DNA from: Vectrevirus T145P2
DNA length: 44,662 nt
Sequence record: OZ035802.1
Direction: 5' to 3' (one strand)
Both the position numbers and the translations under genes were made by a program. Below are positions 1-44,662 of this stretch, in pieces (within the stretch, counting starts at the first letter, position 1; each line of letters starts with the position of its first letter). Below the pieces are notes generated by a model. The model was not told where the DNA came from. It made no database searches and saw only the letters and a program-made list of their open reading frames with translations.

Positions 1-29
1 TAATAAGTTCAAGATTTGGAGGGAGAAGC

Positions 30-329
30 GTGAGCGTACACAATAAACATGCAGCTACAGAGGACGAGGTTGGCATTCTGCATGGTGCTATTACCAAAAT
101 CTTCAATAAGAAAGCACAGGCAATACTGGACACTATAGAAGAAGACCCTGATGCAGCATTACATTTAGTGTCTGGTAAGGATATTGGTGCGATGTGTAAG
201 TGGGTTCTTGATAACGGCATTACCGCCACACCTGCTGCACAGCAGGAAGAGTCCAAGTTATCTAAGCGCCTCAAGGCTATCCGAGAGGCATCCAGTGGTA
301 AGATAATTCAATTCACTAAGGAGGATTGA
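30..329 (+). CDS. putative terminase small subunit (gp18-like)
   Basis: 99-aa ORF with GTG start after GGAGGGAG; stop overlaps start of large terminase; T7-group synteny holin - small terminase - large terminase. No motif-level proof. Confidence 0.5.
   Translation: MSVHNKHAATEDEVGILHGAITKIFNKKAQAILDTIEEDPDAALHLVSGKDIGAMCKWVLDNGITATPAAQQEESKLSKRLKAIREASSGKIIQFTKED
123..145 (+). promoter_or_regulatory. SP6-like phage RNAP promoter embedded in small terminase coding sequence
   Basis: AATACTGGACACTATAGAAGAAG matches the recurrent 23-bp promoter consensus of this genome. Confidence 0.5.
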
Positions 330-2227: not shown

Positions 2228-2250
2228 TTACTGGACACTATAGAAGGAAG
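2227..2250 (+). promoter_or_regulatory. SP6-like phage promoter
   Basis: ATTACTGGACACTATAGAAGGAAG immediately after terminase stop. Confidence 0.6.
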
Positions 2251-2679: not shown

Positions 2680-2967
2680 ATGGCTAAATATGGTGAAGGT
2701 TCTGTTACTGGTCAAGCTTTTCGAGTAAAAGCAGTACAAACTATTGCAACGGCAATTCCTATGCCTGTTGTTAAGGAAGCAGACCTTAAGAAGAAAGACC
2801 ACCCTATCAACATCAAACATTTATCAGGTAAACAGAAAGGTGCAATGGTTGCTCTTGAGAAAACTGACACAACCATGCATATTGCTGTTGCACGTGGCAG
2901 TGAACCAACAGACCCTTGGGATGTAACTGGTATGGAAATGGACGCTGTTACTCCAGCAGGGGATTAA
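2680..2967 (+). CDS. hypothetical small protein, paralog B
   Basis: ATG after AGAAGGAGGAG RBS; 95 aa; paralogous to 2384..2662. Confidence 0.5.
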   Translation: MAKYGEGSVTGQAFRVKAVQTIATAIPMPVVKEADLKKKDHPINIKHLSGKQKGAMVALEKTDTTMHIAVARGSEPTDPWDVTGMEMDAVTPAGD

Positions 2968-2969
2968 TA

Positions 2970-3314
2970 ATGCTTAACAAATACTTCAAGCGTAAAGAGT
3001 TCGCTTGCCGTTGTGGGTGCGGTACATCCACTGTTGATGCTGAATTACTGCAGGTAGTCACAGATGTGCGTGAGCACTTTGGTTCTCCTGTAGTTATCAC
3101 TTCGGGGCATCGCTGTGCTAAGCACAATGCTAATGTAGGAGGAGCTAAGAACTCCATGCATCTTACTGGTAAGGCTGCTGACATTAAAGTGTCTGGCATA
3201 TTGCCTTCTGAAGTGCATAAGTATCTTACTAGCAAATACCAAGGCAAGTATGGTATCGGTAAGTATAACTCCTTCACTCACATCGATGTACGGGATGGTT
3301 GTGCGCGATGGTAA
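2970..3314 (+). CDS. putative peptidoglycan hydrolase, peptidase M15-like (endolysin candidate)
   Basis: N-terminal KEFACRCGCG motif and SGHRCxxHN...HLxGxAAD...HID zinc-ligand pattern typical of the M15 (PF08291-like) family; ~114 aa; TAATAATG overlap with upstream gene. Confidence 0.6.
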   Translation: MLNKYFKRKEFACRCGCGTSTVDAELLQVVTDVREHFGSPVVITSGHRCAKHNANVGGAKNSMHLTGKAADIKVSGILPSEVHKYLTSKYQGKYGIGKYNSFTHIDVRDGCARW

Positions 3315-3439
3315 GATGTGTTGAATGGTGTGAGCGTATGGTTGCCCAAGCTGCCGAGGATGGCAACTATGATGACTGGAAGAACTACTCTGACTTGTTA
3401 GCTCAATGGAAAGGGAGATGCAATGAAAAAGCTGTTTAA
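3308..3439 (+). CDS. hypothetical small Cys-containing ORF (43 aa)
   Basis: ATGGTAA overlap with endolysin stop; below ORF-track size cut-off; weak. Confidence 0.25.
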   Translation: MVRCVEWCERMVAQAAEDGNYDDWKNYSDLLAQWKGRCNEKAV

Positions 3440-3572
3440 GTCTAAGAAGGTTGTAGGTGCACTGGTTGCACTTGTTATTGCTCTTGTTTCTGTAGGTCTT
3501 GGTGTAGACCTTGGCTCTGGCACGGAATCCTCTGTGACAGATGTGGTCTGCCAAGTGATTACCTGTGAATAA
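3423..3572 (+). CDS. small single-TMD protein (49 aa), holin/antiholin-like or N-terminal part of a spanin
   Basis: MKKLFKSKK then hydrophobic VVGALVALVIALVSVGLGV; inside lysis cassette. Confidence 0.35.
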   Translation: MKKLFKSKKVVGALVALVIALVSVGLGVDLGSGTESSVTDVVCQVITCE

Positions 3573-3786
3573 GTTCCTAGAAGTGCTGGCAGGTCTTATT
3601 GGCCTGCTTGTCTCTGCTAAGAAGAAACAAGAAGAGAAGGAGGCACAAAGTGAAGCGAATCATGCTAGCGACAATCCTGCTGATTGGTTCGCTGACCACT
3701 TCCGGGTGTCAGCAGGCGTTACCAGAGAAGGCAATGGTGAAACCTCTGAGGCCGACGCTGACGGCAGTTTACGAGGTGGACGATAA
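3565..3786 (+). CDS. candidate i-spanin-like ORF (short, atypical)
   Basis: GTG start; hydrophobic N-terminus FLEVLAGLIGLLVSA; overlaps the lipoprotein ORF in another frame. Confidence 0.3.
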   Translation: MNKFLEVLAGLIGLLVSAKKKQEEKEAQSEANHASDNPADWFADHFRVSAGVTREGNGETSEADADGSLRGGR

Positions 3787-3859
3787 GGTCTGCTTTAGTA
3801 AGCCTGACGCTACAAAATTAGGTTTGTATATTCTTTCGCTAGAACGCGGGTATAATTAA
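3650..3859 (+). CDS. candidate o-spanin (outer membrane lipoprotein, Rz1-like)
   Basis: AAGGAGG then GTG; signal peptide MKRIMLATILLIGSLTTSGC with lipobox Cys; Pro-rich mature part; starts inside the 3565..3786 ORF. Confidence 0.5.
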   Translation: MKRIMLATILLIGSLTTSGCQQALPEKAMVKPLRPTLTAVYEVDDKVCFSKPDATKLGLYILSLERGYN

Positions 3860-3888
3860 TACATAGTTTTATGTATCAGTGTCTTACG

Positions 3889-3913
3889 ATTTACTGGACA
3901 CTATAGAAGAGAT
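3889..3913 (+). promoter_or_regulatory. SP6-like phage promoter upstream of tailspike genes
   Basis: ATTTACTGGACACTATAGAAGAGAT. Confidence 0.6.
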
Positions 3914-3990
3914 AAGATAGTGCCGTTCTTTTGAGCGGCCTATTACTAGCCAATCTTCATAGGGAGGGTTGGGAAGTAATAGGAGGTCTA

Positions 3991-5430
3991 ATGGCTAAAA
4001 TTACCAAACCTGTCACAACTGGTATTATACATGAAGGTGGATTGCTGTCAGATTATCTAAAACAAGCATGGGATAACACCTTACACGCTGATAACTACTT
4101 TGTTAGTGTTAAAGATTTTGGTGCTAAGGGTGATGGCTCTGCCGATGATACTGCTGCATTCAAAGCTGCACTTGCTTCTGGTAAGAACGTGTATATCCCT
4201 GTAGGTATTTATATAATTAGTGAGACTTTGTATTTTAAGAATCAGGTTATAAAAGGTGGCGGCATAGCACCTGTCCCTAGTCTTGGTACAATCCTTGCAA
4301 TTTCACACAATGAGCCTGCATGGAAATATGATGAAAGCGCAGGTTACTCTATGGGTGGTTATTTAGGTGGGTTCTTCATAGATTATGGAGAGAACAAACC
4401 AGATAACTATGCAGGCAGAAAAGGCATAGATCTAGGTGATGACGACCAACAAGCATGGCCTTCTCAATTTATCATTGAGAACATCATTGTCCGTGGTGCA
4501 TACTTTGGTTTGCATGATGAAACAGGAGCATTCCAATACTCAATGCGCAATGTGGTTGCTATCAATTGCTGGGAGGGGTTCCGTAAGTTCACTGGAACTA
4601 CAGTCCTTATGGATACATGCTATGCGCTTAATTGCTATCAAGCATATAGACTGGCTAATGTTTATAATATGACAATGAATAACTGCGCCATGGATGGATG
4701 TAATGATATCCAAGGTTTACAGGCATTTGATATTACAAACTGCAAAGGTCTTGTGATAAATGGCATGTATAGTGAGAATTGTGAGATCCATCATAGCGGT
4801 AATGCTTCTATATTTATTCATGGAGATTCTACAGTAACAATCAACGGTTATGCCTTACACTCGCATAATGTCGTTGTTGATCCAGCATCTGGAAGTGAAG
4901 AAGCATACTTTCTTAGAGCGCACGACAGCTCTAGGGTCAATGTAGATGGAATCTTCTTCGGTGAGAACCTTAAATCTACTAGTATCTTCACCTACCCAAT
5001 TATGGCCTCTGGTGAGTCTAGAATTAAGCTAGGAACTACAGCACTTAAGGCATGGGTCGGTGCTAAGGGTGGTGCATCTATGGCTGCTGTTGGAGATAGT
5101 CTCATTGAATATGACAATACCGTATTTAACCCATCACTTACTGTAGGTTGGTGCAGTAATAATGGTGTTGTAGCTAAAGGGACACTAGTTGTAAACACAA
5201 CATTAGAACCTAATGCAGATTTAAATGCAGGAACTATACAATTAGTTGGTGACTATAAACCAAATAAAGGTGATGTTCTTACATATGGTTCTACTTTCGA
5301 TGTTCAATCATGTGCTATTATTCTGAAGCCACAAGGTGATAATAGTTGTAATGTTTACATTAAAAATCTAAGTGCAGGTAGTAGTGTTACACTTAACGGA
5401 ATATTGCACGTACAGGCAATTCGTAGGTAA
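3991..5430 (+). CDS. tailspike 1, right-handed beta-helix pectate-lyase-like depolymerase
   Basis: ATG after TAGGAGG; N-terminal VSVKDFGAKGDGSADDTAAFKAA motif typical of pectate-lyase-fold tailspikes; repetitive N/G/T-rich beta-helix composition. Confidence 0.7.
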   Translation: MAKITKPVTTGIIHEGGLLSDYLKQAWDNTLHADNYFVSVKDFGAKGDGSADDTAAFKAALASGKNVYIPVGIYIISETLYFKNQVIKGGGIAPVPSLGTILAISHNEPAWKYDESAGYSMGGYLGGFFIDYGENKPDNYAGRKGIDLGDDDQQAWPSQFIIENIIVRGAYFGLHDETGAFQYSMRNVVAINCWEGFRKFTGTTVLMDTCYALNCYQAYRLANVYNMTMNNCAMDGCNDIQGLQAFDITNCKGLVINGMYSENCEIHHSGNASIFIHGDSTVTINGYALHSHNVVVDPASGSEEAYFLRAHDSSRVNVDGIFFGENLKSTSIFTYPIMASGESRIKLGTTALKAWVGAKGGASMAAVGDSLIEYDNTVFNPSLTVGWCSNNGVVAKGTLVVNTTLEPNADLNAGTIQLVGDYKPNKGDVLTYGSTFDVQSCAIILKPQGDNSCNVYIKNLSAGSSVTLNGILHVQAIRR

Positions 5431-5514: not shown

Positions 5515-7950
5515 ATGATTCAAAGACTAGGTTCTTCATTAGTTAAATTCAAGAGTAAAATAGCAGGTGCAATCTGGCGTAACTTGGATGACAAGCTCAC
5601 CGAGGTTGTATCGCTTAAAGATTTTGGAGCCAAAGGTGATGGTAAGACAAACGACCAAGATGCAGTAAATGCAGCGATGGCTTCAGGTAAGAGAATTGAC
5701 GGTGCTGGTGCTACTTACAAAGTATCATCTTTACCTGATATGGAGCGATTCTATAACACCCGCTTCGTATGGGAACGTTTAGCAGGTCAACCTCTTTACT
5801 ATGTGAGTAAAGGTTTTATCAATGGTGAACTCTATAAAATCACGGATAACCCTTATTACAATGCTTGGCCTCAAGACAAAGCGTTTGTATATGAGAATGT
5901 GATATATGCACCCTACATGGGTAGCGACCGTCATGGCGTTAGTCGTCTGCATGTATCATGGGTTAAGTCTGGTGACGATGGTCAAACATGGTCTACTCCA
6001 GAGTGGCTAACTGATCTGCATCCAGATTACCCTACAGTGAACTATCATTGTATGAGTATGGGTGTATGTCGCAACCGTCTGTTTGCCATGATTGAAACAC
6101 GTACTTTAGCCAAGAACGCACTAACCAATTGTGCATTGTGGGATCGCCCTATGTCTCGTAGTCTGCATCTTACTGGTGGTATCACTAAGGCTGCAAATCA
6201 GAGATATGCAACAATCCATGTACCTGATCACGGACTATTCGTGGGCGATTTTGTTAACTTCTCTAATTCTGCGGTAACAGGTGTATCAGGTGATATGACT
6301 GTTGCAACGGTAATAGATAAGGACAACTTCACGGTTCTTACACCTAACCAGCAGACTTCAGATTTGAATAACGCTGGAAAGAGTTGGCACATGGGTACTT
6401 CTTTCCATAAGTCTCCATGGCGTAAGACAGATCTTGGTCTAATCCCTAGTGTCACAGAGGTGCATAGCTTTGCTACTATTGATAACAATGGCTTTGTTAT
6501 GGGCTATCATCAAGGTGATGTAGCTCCACGAGAAGTTGGTCTTTTCTACTTCCCTGATGCTTTCAATAGCCCATCTAATTATGTTCGTCGTCAGATACCA
6601 GCTGAGTATGAACCAGATGCGGCAGAGCCATGCATCAAGTACTATGACGGTGTATTATACCTTATCACTCGTGGTACTCGTGGCGACCGACTAGGAAGCT
6701 CTTTGCATCGTAGTAGAGATATAGGTCAGACTTGGGAGTCACTGAGATTTCCACATAATGTTCATCATACTACCTTACCTTTTGCTAAAGTAGGAGATGA
6801 CCTTATTATGTTTGGTTCAGAACGTGCAGAAAATGAATGGGAAGCAGGTGCACCAGATGATCGTTACAAGGCATCTTATCCTCGTACCTTCTATGCACGA
6901 TTGAATGTAAACAATTGGAATGCAGATGATATTGAATGGGTTAACATCACAGACCAAATCTATCAAGGTGACATTGTGAACTCTAGTGTAGGTGTAGGTT
7001 CTGTTGTAGTTAAAGACAGCTACATTTACTATATCTTTGGTGGTGAAAACCATTTCAACCCAATGACTTATGGTGACAACAAAGATAAAGACCCATTTAA
7101 AGGTCATGGACACCCTACTGATATATACTGCTATAAGATGCAGATTGCAAATGACAATCGTGTATCTCGTAAGTTTACATATGGTGCAACTCCTGGTCAG
7201 GCTATACCTACTTTCATGGGTACTGATGGAATACGAAATATCCCTGCACCTTTGTATTTCTCAGATAACATTGTTACAGAGGATACTAAAGTTGGACACT
7301 TAACACTTAAAGCAAGCACAAGTTCCAATATACGATCTGAAGTGCAGATGGAAGGTGAATATGGCTTTATTGGCAAGTCTGTTCCAAAGGACAACCCAAC
7401 TGGTCAACGTTTGATTATTTGTGGTGGAGAAGAGACTTCGTCATCTTCAGGTGCACAGATAACTTTGCACGGCTCTAATTCAAGTAATGCTAAGCGTATC
7501 ACTTATAACGGAAATGAGCACCTATTCCAAGGTGCACCAATCATGCCTGCTGTAGATAACCAGTTTGCTGCTGGTGGACCTAGTAACCGATTCACTACCA
7601 TCTACCTAGGTAGTGACCCTGTTACAACTTCAGATGCTGACCACAAGTACGGTATCTCTGGTATTAATACCAAGGTGTTAAAGGCTTGGAGCAGGGTTGG
7701 TTTTAAACAGTATGGTTTGAATAGTGAAGCAGAGAGGAATCTTGATAGCATACACTTCGGTGTCTTGGCTCAGGATATTGTAGCTGCTTTTGAAGCTGAA
7801 GGATTGGATGCCATTAAGTATGGAATTGTGTCCTTCGAAGAAGGTAGGTACGGTGTGAGATATAGTGAAGTTCTAATCCTAGAGGCTGCCTACACTCGCC
7901 ATCGTCTTGATAAATTAGAGGAGATGTATGCCGCTAATAAAATCAGTTAA
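5515..7950 (+). CDS. tailspike 2, endosialidase-like with C-terminal intramolecular chaperone domain
   Basis: 811 aa; two sialidase Asp-boxes (SGDDGQTW, SRDIGQTW); last ~105 aa resemble the autocleaving chaperone domain of endosialidases with SDADHK Ser-Lys motif; N-terminal SLKDFGAKGDG. Confidence 0.8.
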   Translation: MIQRLGSSLVKFKSKIAGAIWRNLDDKLTEVVSLKDFGAKGDGKTNDQDAVNAAMASGKRIDGAGATYKVSSLPDMERFYNTRFVWERLAGQPLYYVSKGFINGELYKITDNPYYNAWPQDKAFVYENVIYAPYMGSDRHGVSRLHVSWVKSGDDGQTWSTPEWLTDLHPDYPTVNYHCMSMGVCRNRLFAMIETRTLAKNALTNCALWDRPMSRSLHLTGGITKAANQRYATIHVPDHGLFVGDFVNFSNSAVTGVSGDMTVATVIDKDNFTVLTPNQQTSDLNNAGKSWHMGTSFHKSPWRKTDLGLIPSVTEVHSFATIDNNGFVMGYHQGDVAPREVGLFYFPDAFNSPSNYVRRQIPAEYEPDAAEPCIKYYDGVLYLITRGTRGDRLGSSLHRSRDIGQTWESLRFPHNVHHTTLPFAKVGDDLIMFGSERAENEWEAGAPDDRYKASYPRTFYARLNVNNWNADDIEWVNITDQIYQGDIVNSSVGVGSVVVKDSYIYYIFGGENHFNPMTYGDNKDKDPFKGHGHPTDIYCYKMQIANDNRVSRKFTYGATPGQAIPTFMGTDGIRNIPAPLYFSDNIVTEDTKVGHLTLKASTSSNIRSEVQMEGEYGFIGKSVPKDNPTGQRLIICGGEETSSSSGAQITLHGSNSSNAKRITYNGNEHLFQGAPIMPAVDNQFAAGGPSNRFTTIYLGSDPVTTSDADHKYGISGINTKVLKAWSRVGFKQYGLNSEAERNLDSIHFGVLAQDIVAAFEAEGLDAIKYGIVSFEEGRYGVRYSEVLILEAAYTRHRLDKLEEMYAANKIS

Positions 7951-44513: not shown

Positions 44514-44662
44514 ATGATTAACTCCGAACTGGTAGATAGTGGTGTGAAGCTTGCGCCACCTGCACTCGTATCAGGTGGGTACTTCCTCGGTATCAGTTGG
44601 GATAATTGGGTGTTAATAGCAACATTCATTTATACCGTGTTGCAAATTGGGGACTGGTTTTA
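44514..44662 (+). CDS. T7-type class II holin (gp17.5-like), truncated by window end
   Basis: GGGGGTGGG RBS; MINSELVDSGVKLAPPALV then hydrophobic FLGISWDNWVLIATFIYTVLQI; joined to base 1 it ends at TAA 44..46 as a 65-aa protein. Confidence 0.65.
   Translation, partial: MINSELVDSGVKLAPPALVSGGYFLGISWDNWVLIATFIYTVLQIGDWF

Follow-up and report, generated by a model that had tools for sequence, protein, structure and literature searches.

The final step of lysis in Gram-negative hosts is performed by spanins, which consist, by definition, of an i-spanin, a protein anchored in the inner membrane, and an o-spanin, which is a lipoprotein of the outer membrane. Here we describe a candidate spanin locus of the phage Vectrevirus T145P2 (record OZ035802.1), of which a stretch of 44,662 nucleotides (nt), referred to as the window, was analysed. 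Three small open reading frames (ORFs) follow one another on the plus strand downstream of an M15 endolysin gene: p49 (3423..3572; 49 amino acids (aa), ATG at 3423 and TAA at 3570-3572), p73 (3565..3786; 73 aa, GTG start) and p69 (3650..3859; 69 aa, GTG start), the last of which encodes a predicted outer-membrane lipoprotein. They match the protein families phrog_4712 (E=2.8e-27), phrog_9219 (E=3.6e-32) and phrog_8971, labelled ‘Rz-like spanin’ (E=4e-39), respectively. A first-pass annotation of the window had given the same coordinates, and its arithmetic is correct throughout: the end of p49 meets the start of p73 in the adjacent (+1) frame, and p69 starts within p73 and ends 73 nt beyond it. 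The stop/start overlap of p49 and p73 is 8 nt, and p73 and p69 share 137 nt. The view of the first-pass annotation that an overlapped rather than embedded lipoprotein gene is atypical did not hold, since 228 out of 528 two-component spanins are overlapped, which makes this the commonest class, followed by 182 embedded and 118 separated pairs (PMC6139136).

Over 2900-3950 the window shares 97% identity with the Escherichia phages K1-5 and AAPEc6 (Vectrevirus, Molineuxvirinae, Autographiviridae). When related genomes were compared, the same three ORFs were found in the same frames in 31 distinct SP6-like loci, which comprise Vectrevirus, Zindervirus, Acadevirus and Klebsiella relatives, and this arrangement is far beyond chance. 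Where p73 shares no sequence with another ORF (3573-3649), the mean column entropy over these loci was 0.60, 0.25 and 0.99 for the first, second and third codon position, which is the classical coding signature of the p73 frame. All three codon positions are constrained in the first part of the overlap with p69 (3650-3712). The remaining overlap follows the p69 frame, and it is through this tail that the length of p73 varies between 61 and 73 aa; the functional core of p73 is therefore about aa 1-49 (3565-3711). This conserved core contains an N-terminal helix that is amphipathic and weakly hydrophobic, another that is charged, and the motif SDNPADWFADHFRV, which in the family alignment reads P-x2-W-F-x2-H-F, with P38, W41, H45 and F46 invariant or nearly so. 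AlphaFold2 predicted a helix at residues 2-36, a kink at P38, a second helix at 38-45 and a disordered tail, with a mean predicted local distance difference test score (pLDDT) of 70. A profile search of 1.8 billion representative proteins recovered 65 clusters of p73-like proteins, nearly all of them 58-83 aa long.

Could the 73-aa ORF be a non-functional by-product of the p69 leader, ribosome-binding region and signal-peptide coding? Many records leave the ORF unannotated, its tail is carried along in evolution by the p69 frame, and its charged helix (EKEAQ) coincides with the Shine-Dalgarno sequence of p69. On the other hand, the coding pattern is present where no other ORF overlaps, and start, length and the ORF itself are conserved in 76 distinct homologues from very different phages. 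Moreover, the near-invariant W, P, H and F residues of p73 force Gly and Thr into the hydrophobic core of the p69 signal peptide. These residues are unusual in a lipoprotein signal, and it is therefore the p73 frame that drives conservation there, rather than the reverse. A chance ORF or leader was rejected on the codon-position entropy together with the family conservation, and we regard a non-functional p73 as very improbable.

The p69 product has the features of an o-spanin lipoprotein. Its signal sequence MKRIMLATILLIGSLTTSG ends in the lipobox LTTSG immediately before the lipobox Cys, which is invariant in 50 aligned homologues, and the residue at +2 is Gln, an outer-membrane sorting residue, and not Asp. 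The protein can be divided into the signal peptide, an extended Pro/Lys linker and a small beta-hairpin-plus-helix domain with a nearly invariant Cys48, the kind of periplasmic Cys through which covalent homodimers form; p73 has no Cys and p49 has two. The AlphaFold2 model consists of the signal helix, the extended linker, a beta-hairpin at 40-49 and a helix at 51-64, with a pLDDT of about 90 over residues 31-65. A Foldseek search with this model against viral structures returned its own family and weak lipoprotein-like matches and was uninformative, and sequence searches of Pfam, NCBIfam and the PDB gave no match for p49, p69 or the neighbouring p46. A homologue of p69 is present in 156 phage records, and several sources name it ‘O-spanin’.

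The pairing of p73 with p69 is strict. Profile searches found p73-like and p69-like ORFs together at 130 of 130 loci, and in every locus examined the p69 frame is +1 relative to p73, with a start 76-118 nt after that of p73. The p69 Shine-Dalgarno sequence AAGGAGG (3637..3643, plus strand) is embedded in the p73 codons for E-K-E-A, and equivalent GGAG motifs lie upstream of the p69-like starts in remote loci. The two genes thus show the overlapping layout of two-component spanins (137 nt, +1). Here the module lies directly downstream of the M15 endolysin, and elsewhere it follows several other endolysin types. The pair extends well outside the SP6-like phages; cassettes were found in which a PF16083 holin, a DUF5675 protein and a transmembrane (TM) protein precede the pair, others in which a PF16083 holin, a GH19 endolysin and a TM protein do so, and still others with an M15 or GH108-type endolysin and a TM protein. 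Taken together, p73 and p69 appear to be an ancient overlapped pair whose members always occur together, with p69 as the o-spanin candidate. In five remote cassettes a protein of 77-131 aa with a transmembrane domain (TMD) and a coiled-coil-like region adjoins the module (L127 1698-2000, L106 1711-2106, L112 584-817, L102 490-762 and L100 1696-2022); the cassette of the window has no counterpart of it.

We then considered how p73 is translated relative to p49. The first-pass annotation had proposed that the two are joined by a +1 shift into an i-spanin of about 120 aa. The frames are indeed adjacent and the ORFs abut at the junction GTGAATAA (3565..3572, plus strand; 8-nt overlap), and elsewhere a TM segment and a p73-like domain are naturally fused in frame, as described below. 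However, the p73 frame is open for just two codons upstream of its GTG (from 3559), and any +1 shift is therefore confined to 3559-3572. Neither a slippery nor a hungry-codon motif is present in this stretch (ATT ACC TGT GAA TAA G), tRNAs would re-pair poorly in the +1 frame, and no conserved Shine-Dalgarno-like stimulator was found upstream of it. In the 31 SP6-like loci the last sense codon before the p49 stop varies (GAA, GAG or GCA before TAA or TAG), whereas the GTG start of p73 is kept in all of them within a junction that always reads TGTGAnTAr. The terminal Cys codon of p49 is always TGT and its internal Cys codon always TGC in these loci; the GTG start of p73 is preserved because the terminal codon is invariably TGT.

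The frame relation also changes among more distant relatives. Within the wider Autographiviridae, the junction of Pantoea phage Nufs112 is TAA immediately followed by ATG, with p73 in the same frame as the upstream gene, and in PP99 and JSF38 it is TAATG, with p73 in the -1 frame. The junction of Tola resembles that of the window, and other lineages have TAATG, ATGA or GTGA, or again TAA immediately followed by ATG. Start codons, frames and hydrophobicity were counted over the 76 distinct p73-like genes. The start codon is ATG in 43 and GTG in 33 of these, always at the N-terminus of the family. For the 72 that abut an upstream TM gene, the p73 frame is +1 in 36, -1 in 30 and the same in 6, and the commonest stop/start overlaps are 8 nt (34 cases), 4 nt (19), 1 nt (11) and 0 nt (5). 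A recoded fusion would thus require a +1 shift, a -1 shift or stop-codon readthrough, depending on the relative. We found neither the shift-prone site of prfB-type programmed +1 frameshifting nor a conserved frame relation lacking an independent start. Moreover, a p49-p73 fusion would here carry two hydrophobic helices, and its C-terminal domain would therefore be cytoplasmic, on the wrong side for an i-spanin. On the junction sequence and the 76 homologues we rejected the frameshift fusion, to which we give next to no probability; judged from their sequences, the junctions are those of ordinary translational coupling, and we read 3565..3572 in the window accordingly.

The p49 protein has a very basic N-terminus, one strong TMD (free-energy estimate -0.5) and a 21-aa acidic tail that ends with VVCQVITCE (CxxxxC). 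It thereby has the type II TMD (N-in/C-out) of an i-spanin; for a holin, having one TMD only and an acidic C-terminus on the outside would be atypical. Its relatives are nevertheless labelled as holins. Two-TMD proteins encoded just upstream of p73-like genes in unrelated phages matched phrog_4712 (E=1e-5 and 5e-4), the family of p49, and also phrog_34682 and phrog_297, which carry the label holin. Thus, p49 has the appearance of a relative, with one TMD, of a family of small two-TMD proteins to which annotation has given the label holin.

Klebsiella phage HY (vB_KpnP_HY, Molineuxvirinae, PV369459.1, locus L055) is informative about p49. It has kept a T7-type holin, the endolysin, p46 and p49, and it has neither p73 nor p69. 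No ORF with a credible lipobox was found in its whole genome, so that this phage appears to be spanin-less. As p49 is kept in HY without p73 and p69, its role is independent of p69. Counts of presence and absence were not based on tblastn with p49, which is too insensitive for them because the query is short and of low complexity. In locus L030, only a p49-like ORF without the Cys pair follows the endolysin.

The absence of p69 from HY indicates that this phage group is not strictly dependent on it, as might be expected if the module were not a lysis device at all. Small outer-membrane lipoproteins with superinfection-exclusion or receptor-masking roles exist, such as T5 Llp and Cor, and p69 might be a protein of this kind. 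Against this, the pair has a constant position directly after endolysins of several enzyme classes and near holin-like genes in unrelated phages, and it has the overlapped two-gene layout, which is typical of spanins. We therefore see very little chance that the module has such a function.

The suggestion of the first-pass annotation that the TM ORF and the 73-aa ORF form a unit nonetheless finds some backing in comparisons, although these favour separate polypeptides and not a recoded fusion. A small TM gene directly precedes 72 of the 76 distinct p73-like genes, and almost all of the junctions abut or overlap; this gene is of the p49 type in 36, of the two-TMD type in 28, of a third type in 6 and of another type in 2 cases. 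In addition, a p73-like protein with its own membrane segment was found in a marine Tara metagenome scaffold (P0082, 95 aa, L070 329-616). P0082 has a genuine N-terminal TMD and a ‘DLG’ as in p49, followed by a p73-like domain. Its C-terminal part matched the p73 PHROG (E=2.9e-11), the best PHROG for its N-terminal part was the p49 family (E=0.009-0.047), and the two-TMD protein of L102 matched this N-terminal part. The gene directly follows an M15 endolysin gene, with no separate TM gene between them, and overlaps a p69-like gene. Since P0082 has a TMD and the canonical layout of an overlapped i-spanin, the p73 domain would be periplasmic in the L070 phage. P0082 looks like a natural gene fusion, or is possibly the ancestral form; it is a single metagenomic case, seen in 2 samples.

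These observations bear on the main rival of the reading we favour, a non-recoded form of the idea in the first-pass annotation. Here p49 or its non-orthologous equivalents would be the TM anchor, p73 the periplasmic or fusogenic part and p69 the outer-membrane anchor of a three-component spanin made of separate polypeptides. The abutting and coupled TM gene, the match of both p49-type and two-TMD-type upstream proteins to phrog_4712, the poor quality of the p73 helix as a TMD and the L070 case, in which a p73-like protein with its own strong TMD dispenses with a separate small TM gene, all speak for it, as does the L102 match. Against it, p49 persists under selection in HY without p73 or p69, and the upstream TM proteins belong to at least three families that differ in topology. 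In clades such as L134 the upstream TM protein may be the holin of the cassette, and a holin that adjoins spanin genes is ordinary. As the fusion is one metagenomic case as well, we consider a three-component device unlikely, if still the strongest of the competing explanations.

The reading that we favour, and think probable, is that the locus contains three separately translated, coupled small genes, in which p49 is an independent membrane protein of the holin family and p73 and p69 form a compact spanin-type pair, with p73 as its small and weakly anchored inner partner. The gene structure, the selection on the p73 frame, the starts, frames and co-occurrence were observed directly, while the interaction of the two proteins, their topology and the disruption of the outer membrane are what these observations suggest. 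Under this reading p49 would be a small inner-membrane protein with a holin-like or antiholin-like accessory role. Once the holin triggers, the M15 endolysin would degrade the cell wall, after which p73 and p69 would jointly disrupt the outer membrane. p73 would occupy the position of the i-spanin, either held at the inner membrane by its weak N-terminal helix or brought into the periplasm by way of holin lesions. Dimerisation of p69 probably involves Cys48, and the P-x2-W-F-x2-H-F region of p73 would dock on the beta-hairpin-plus-helix domain of p69.

Several points weigh against this reading, among them the membrane anchor of p73. Hydrophobicity was estimated with our own re-implementation of the Hessa 2007 scale, which was calibrated only on a few controls; on this scale the N-terminal helix of p73 scored 2.24 and the family median was 2.28 (n=76; 3 members below 0.5 and 47 at or above 2). 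Known i-spanin TMDs range from -2.2 to 0.1 on the same scale (lambda Rz -2.2, T4 PseT.3 -1.9, T7 gp18.5 0.1), and the controls melittin and magainin gave 3.1 and 9.0. The hydrophobic stretch of the helix covers 12-15 residues including Glu6, and at most 12 aa in a row are neither charged nor strongly polar. The helix had a hydrophobic moment of 0.38 (0.3-0.65 in the family) compared to 0.04-0.14 for lambda Rz, T7 gp18.5 and p49. As a TMD this helix is predicted to be marginal at best, and by these measures p73 is not a canonical i-spanin. The positive-inside rule was dropped in assessing its topology, because lambda Rz itself breaks the rule. If the C-terminus of p73 were outside, its approximately 54 periplasmic residues and the 49 of p69 would add up to about 103, or about 80 when only the conserved parts are counted, whereas p49 and p69 would give about 70-71 (21 plus 49-50). 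Both sums fall within the 62-300 residues of combined periplasmic length in SpaninDB, at the low end (PMC6139136). p73 has no convincing TMD and no signal peptide, which makes a meeting with a periplasmic partner hard to account for.

Other difficulties concern the family itself. p73 has no Cys and no predicted coiled coil beyond one helix, and its search against Pfam, NCBIfam and the PDB gave no match. A relationship with other small overlapped i-spanins that contain ‘NP..F/W L’ stretches (L035 and L036) was considered and rejected, with hhalign probabilities of 0.3 and 0.1, and homology of p73 to other small i-spanins was not detectable by hhalign. The conservation of the charged helix may partly reflect the ribosome-binding site of p69. 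In the remote cassettes with the additional TMD and coiled-coil protein, this protein could be the real i-spanin, or another lysis factor.

The remaining points come from existing records, in which the question of the inner spanin partner in SP6/K1-5-type phages receives three different answers from the spanin database, RefSeq and individual submissions. In RefSeq, p49 carries the name ‘holin’ and p69 ‘Rz-like spanin’, and no entry is given for p73, which is likewise unannotated in the records of K1-5, K1E and LL11. In the LL11 record (Center for Phage Technology, CPT) p49 is a ‘putative I-spanin’. In the SP6 record (AY288927.2, L004) the label ‘i-spanin’ is on the 49-aa ORF, the p73 homologue (970-1167), which has no lipobox, is labelled ‘o-spanin’, and the true lipoprotein ORF at 1034-1243 is unannotated. 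The Nufs112 record names the p73 homologue ‘Rz-like protein’. In SpaninDB (Kongari et al. 2018, PMC6139136), K1-5, K1E and SP6 are entered as ‘separated’ pairs in which the i-spanin is the 49-aa ORF, while the curators of the database flagged this i-spanin as ‘Too small?’ and the pair as ‘Too short’; UAB_Phi78 is entered as ‘overlapped’ with a 69-aa i-spanin (PMC6139136). The latter is a homologue of p73, and the database is thus internally inconsistent. The remark in the first-pass annotation that the i-spanin candidate is small was therefore justified, both by the unusually small size and by the contradictory assignments across SpaninDB entries, even though the architecture itself is not atypical. 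A search of the literature on the small lysis genes of SP6, K1-5 and K1E found annotation-level statements only and no experiments. A second group in SpaninDB (VP4/ICP3/VP3/N4-Vibrio) has a 47-aa ‘i-spanin’ with 21 periplasmic residues and a 65-aa o-spanin as a separated pair (PMC6139136), and may represent the same three-gene module with an overlooked p73-like ORF.

The assignment shared by SpaninDB and the LL11 and SP6 records would make p49 the i-spanin, separated from p69, and would leave p73 with an accessory or regulatory role, for instance as a cytoplasmic factor of the antiholin type. In favour of this, p49 has a textbook type II topology, two periplasmic Cys residues and a position next to the endolysin, and p73 lacks a TMD. 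However, p49 would expose only about 21 residues to the periplasm, hence the flags of the curators, and it is found without p69. In turn, the TM proteins encoded upstream of p69-like genes include some that have no homology to p49 or have their C-terminus inside. As the strict co-occurrence of p73 and p69 at all 130 loci would also be left unexplained, we find this assignment quite unlikely, more so than the three-component device.

A more speculative proposal, which we hold only tentatively and find clearly less convincing than the favoured reading, takes the lack of an anchor at face value. Here p73 would represent a widespread class of spanin partner without a TMD that is made in the cytoplasm and either passes into the periplasm solely via holin lesions, in the manner of soluble endolysins, or is tethered to the membrane solely with the aid of the co-translated small TM protein. 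It would dock on p69 through P-x2-W-F-x2-H-F, and its amphipathic helix would breach or fuse the outer membrane.

The module lies in a late transcription unit that holds, in order, two paralogous small genes, the M15 endolysin gene, p46, p49, p73 and p69. It is opened by an SP6-type phage promoter core (GACACTATAGAAG) at 2234..2246, and the next core lies at 3897..3909, 3' of p69 and ahead of a tailspike gene, both on the plus strand. A search of the window for GACACTATAGAAG with at most 1 mismatch gave 10 matches, all on the plus strand, compared to 0.09 expected by chance; they start at 129, 2234, 3897, 17025, 17873, 21826, 22594, 23740, 26926 and 32008. The endolysin (Peptidase_M15_3, 2970..3314, plus strand; PF08291, E=6.7e-34) has no signal or signal-arrest-release (SAR) sequence. 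It is followed by p46 (3308..3439, plus strand), which encodes a 43-aa soluble Cys-rich protein that begins with MVRCVEWCERMV and matches phrog_1312 (E=2.8e-18), a family labelled as of unknown function. The ATG of p46 overlaps the endolysin stop (ATGGTAA), and its end overlaps the start of p49. p46 is annotated in AAPEc6. Its conservation across SP6-like phages, Nufs112, Tola and HY suggests that it may belong to the lysis cassette as another component.

A holin gene of the T7 gp17.5 type (class II) was also found. The window is circularly permuted, and the permutation splits this gene into a 5' part at 44514..44662 and a 3' part at 1..46 (stop at 44-46), both on the plus strand; it was missed by the ORF lists because it runs off both ends of the window. 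The joined translation of 64 aa matched PF10746 (E=1.5e-27; 95.5 bits compared to a Pfam gathering cutoff of 25.4) and phrog_920. Its position is just upstream of the small terminase gene (30-329), in the interval between tail-fibre and small terminase genes that is characteristic of the gp17.5 family. Given the PF10746 match, a canonical holin is already present in the genome.

Some further genes of this region were recorded. The adjacent paralogues at the beginning of the late unit (2318-2662 and 2680-2967, approximately 95 aa each) share the motif KQKGAMV.LE...W; the RefSeq label ‘acetyl-CoA acetyltransferase’ on them looks propagated and is doubtful, and the LL11 record describes the same pair as ‘most likely a duplication region’. 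Downstream of the module, tandem tailspike genes occupy 3993-5430 and 5515-7950, the second of which encodes an endosialidase-like protein of 811 aa. The first tailspike ORF encodes about 479-499 aa compared to the 632-aa tail spike annotated in K1-5 and may represent a different depolymerase, the comparison with K1-5 having reached as far as 3950.

Among known systems, the pair shares its layout with overlapped two-component spanins such as LysB/LysC of P2. In both, the lipoprotein gene starts inside and ends beyond a small upstream gene in the +1 frame, the cassette lies beside the endolysin, and the C-terminal tail of the upstream protein is variable in the overlap. p73 differs in being only 73 aa long (core approximately 49), with no convincing TMD, no Cys and no long coiled coil, and no sequence homology between p73 and LysB/LysC-type overlapped spanins was detected. 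With lambda Rz/Rz1 and T7 gp18.5/gp18.7 the pair shares the proposed disruption of the outer membrane after holin and endolysin action and a short lipoprotein with a periplasmic Cys as the o-component, and the genome of the window is T7-like and has kept the gp17.5-type holin. However, the lambda and T7 pairs are embedded, whereas p73 and p69 are overlapped, and their i-components have 143-153 aa, in contrast to the 73 aa of the only weakly hydrophobic p73. The module also follows the terminase and endolysin genes, and does not lie between two terminase genes as gp18.5/gp18.7 does. The SpaninDB entries for K1-5, K1E, SP6 and UAB_Phi78 concern the same genes, and p69 is their o-spanin; our data favour p73 as its obligate partner. 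The ‘holin’ labels of PHROGs 4712, 34682 and 297 are annotation, and p49, which falls in phrog_4712, has one TMD with its N-terminus in and its C-terminus out.

A different means of breaching the outer membrane is reportedly used by phage phiKT, in which the ‘disruptin’ gp28, a cationic amphipathic peptide, replaces spanins. Like p73, gp28 as it is described is small, is encoded in a lysis cassette and has an amphipathic helix, and it would act on the outer membrane once released from the cytoplasm. p73 differs from it in being net acidic, in its conserved aromatic motif and in always being paired with a lipoprotein gene, and the two are not known to be homologous.

In these phages, the o-spanin and the cassette in general were already known. 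New here are the strict pairing of p73 with p69, the finding that the p73 family is broad and lacks a TMD, the recurrence of the three genes as a module and the exclusion of recoding. What accompanies the lipoprotein throughout is a conserved protein of some 70 aa, for which most records have no annotation and which lacks a convincing membrane anchor. We recommend that the p73 family be called by annotation pipelines and that several public records be corrected. The muddle of labels thereby becomes a testable question, namely whether p69 requires p49 or p73, and from which side of the membrane p73 works. SP6/K1-5-type phages are used in capsule-targeting phage therapy work. If the more speculative proposal given above holds, these phages would carry a three-gene, holin-gated system for disruption of the outer membrane and not a classical Rz/Rz1 pair, and the ‘too small’ i-spanins of SpaninDB (K1-5, K1E, SP6 and perhaps the VP4/ICP3 group) would be mis-assigned. 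If p73 works without a TMD, the definition of two-component spanins would need to be widened.

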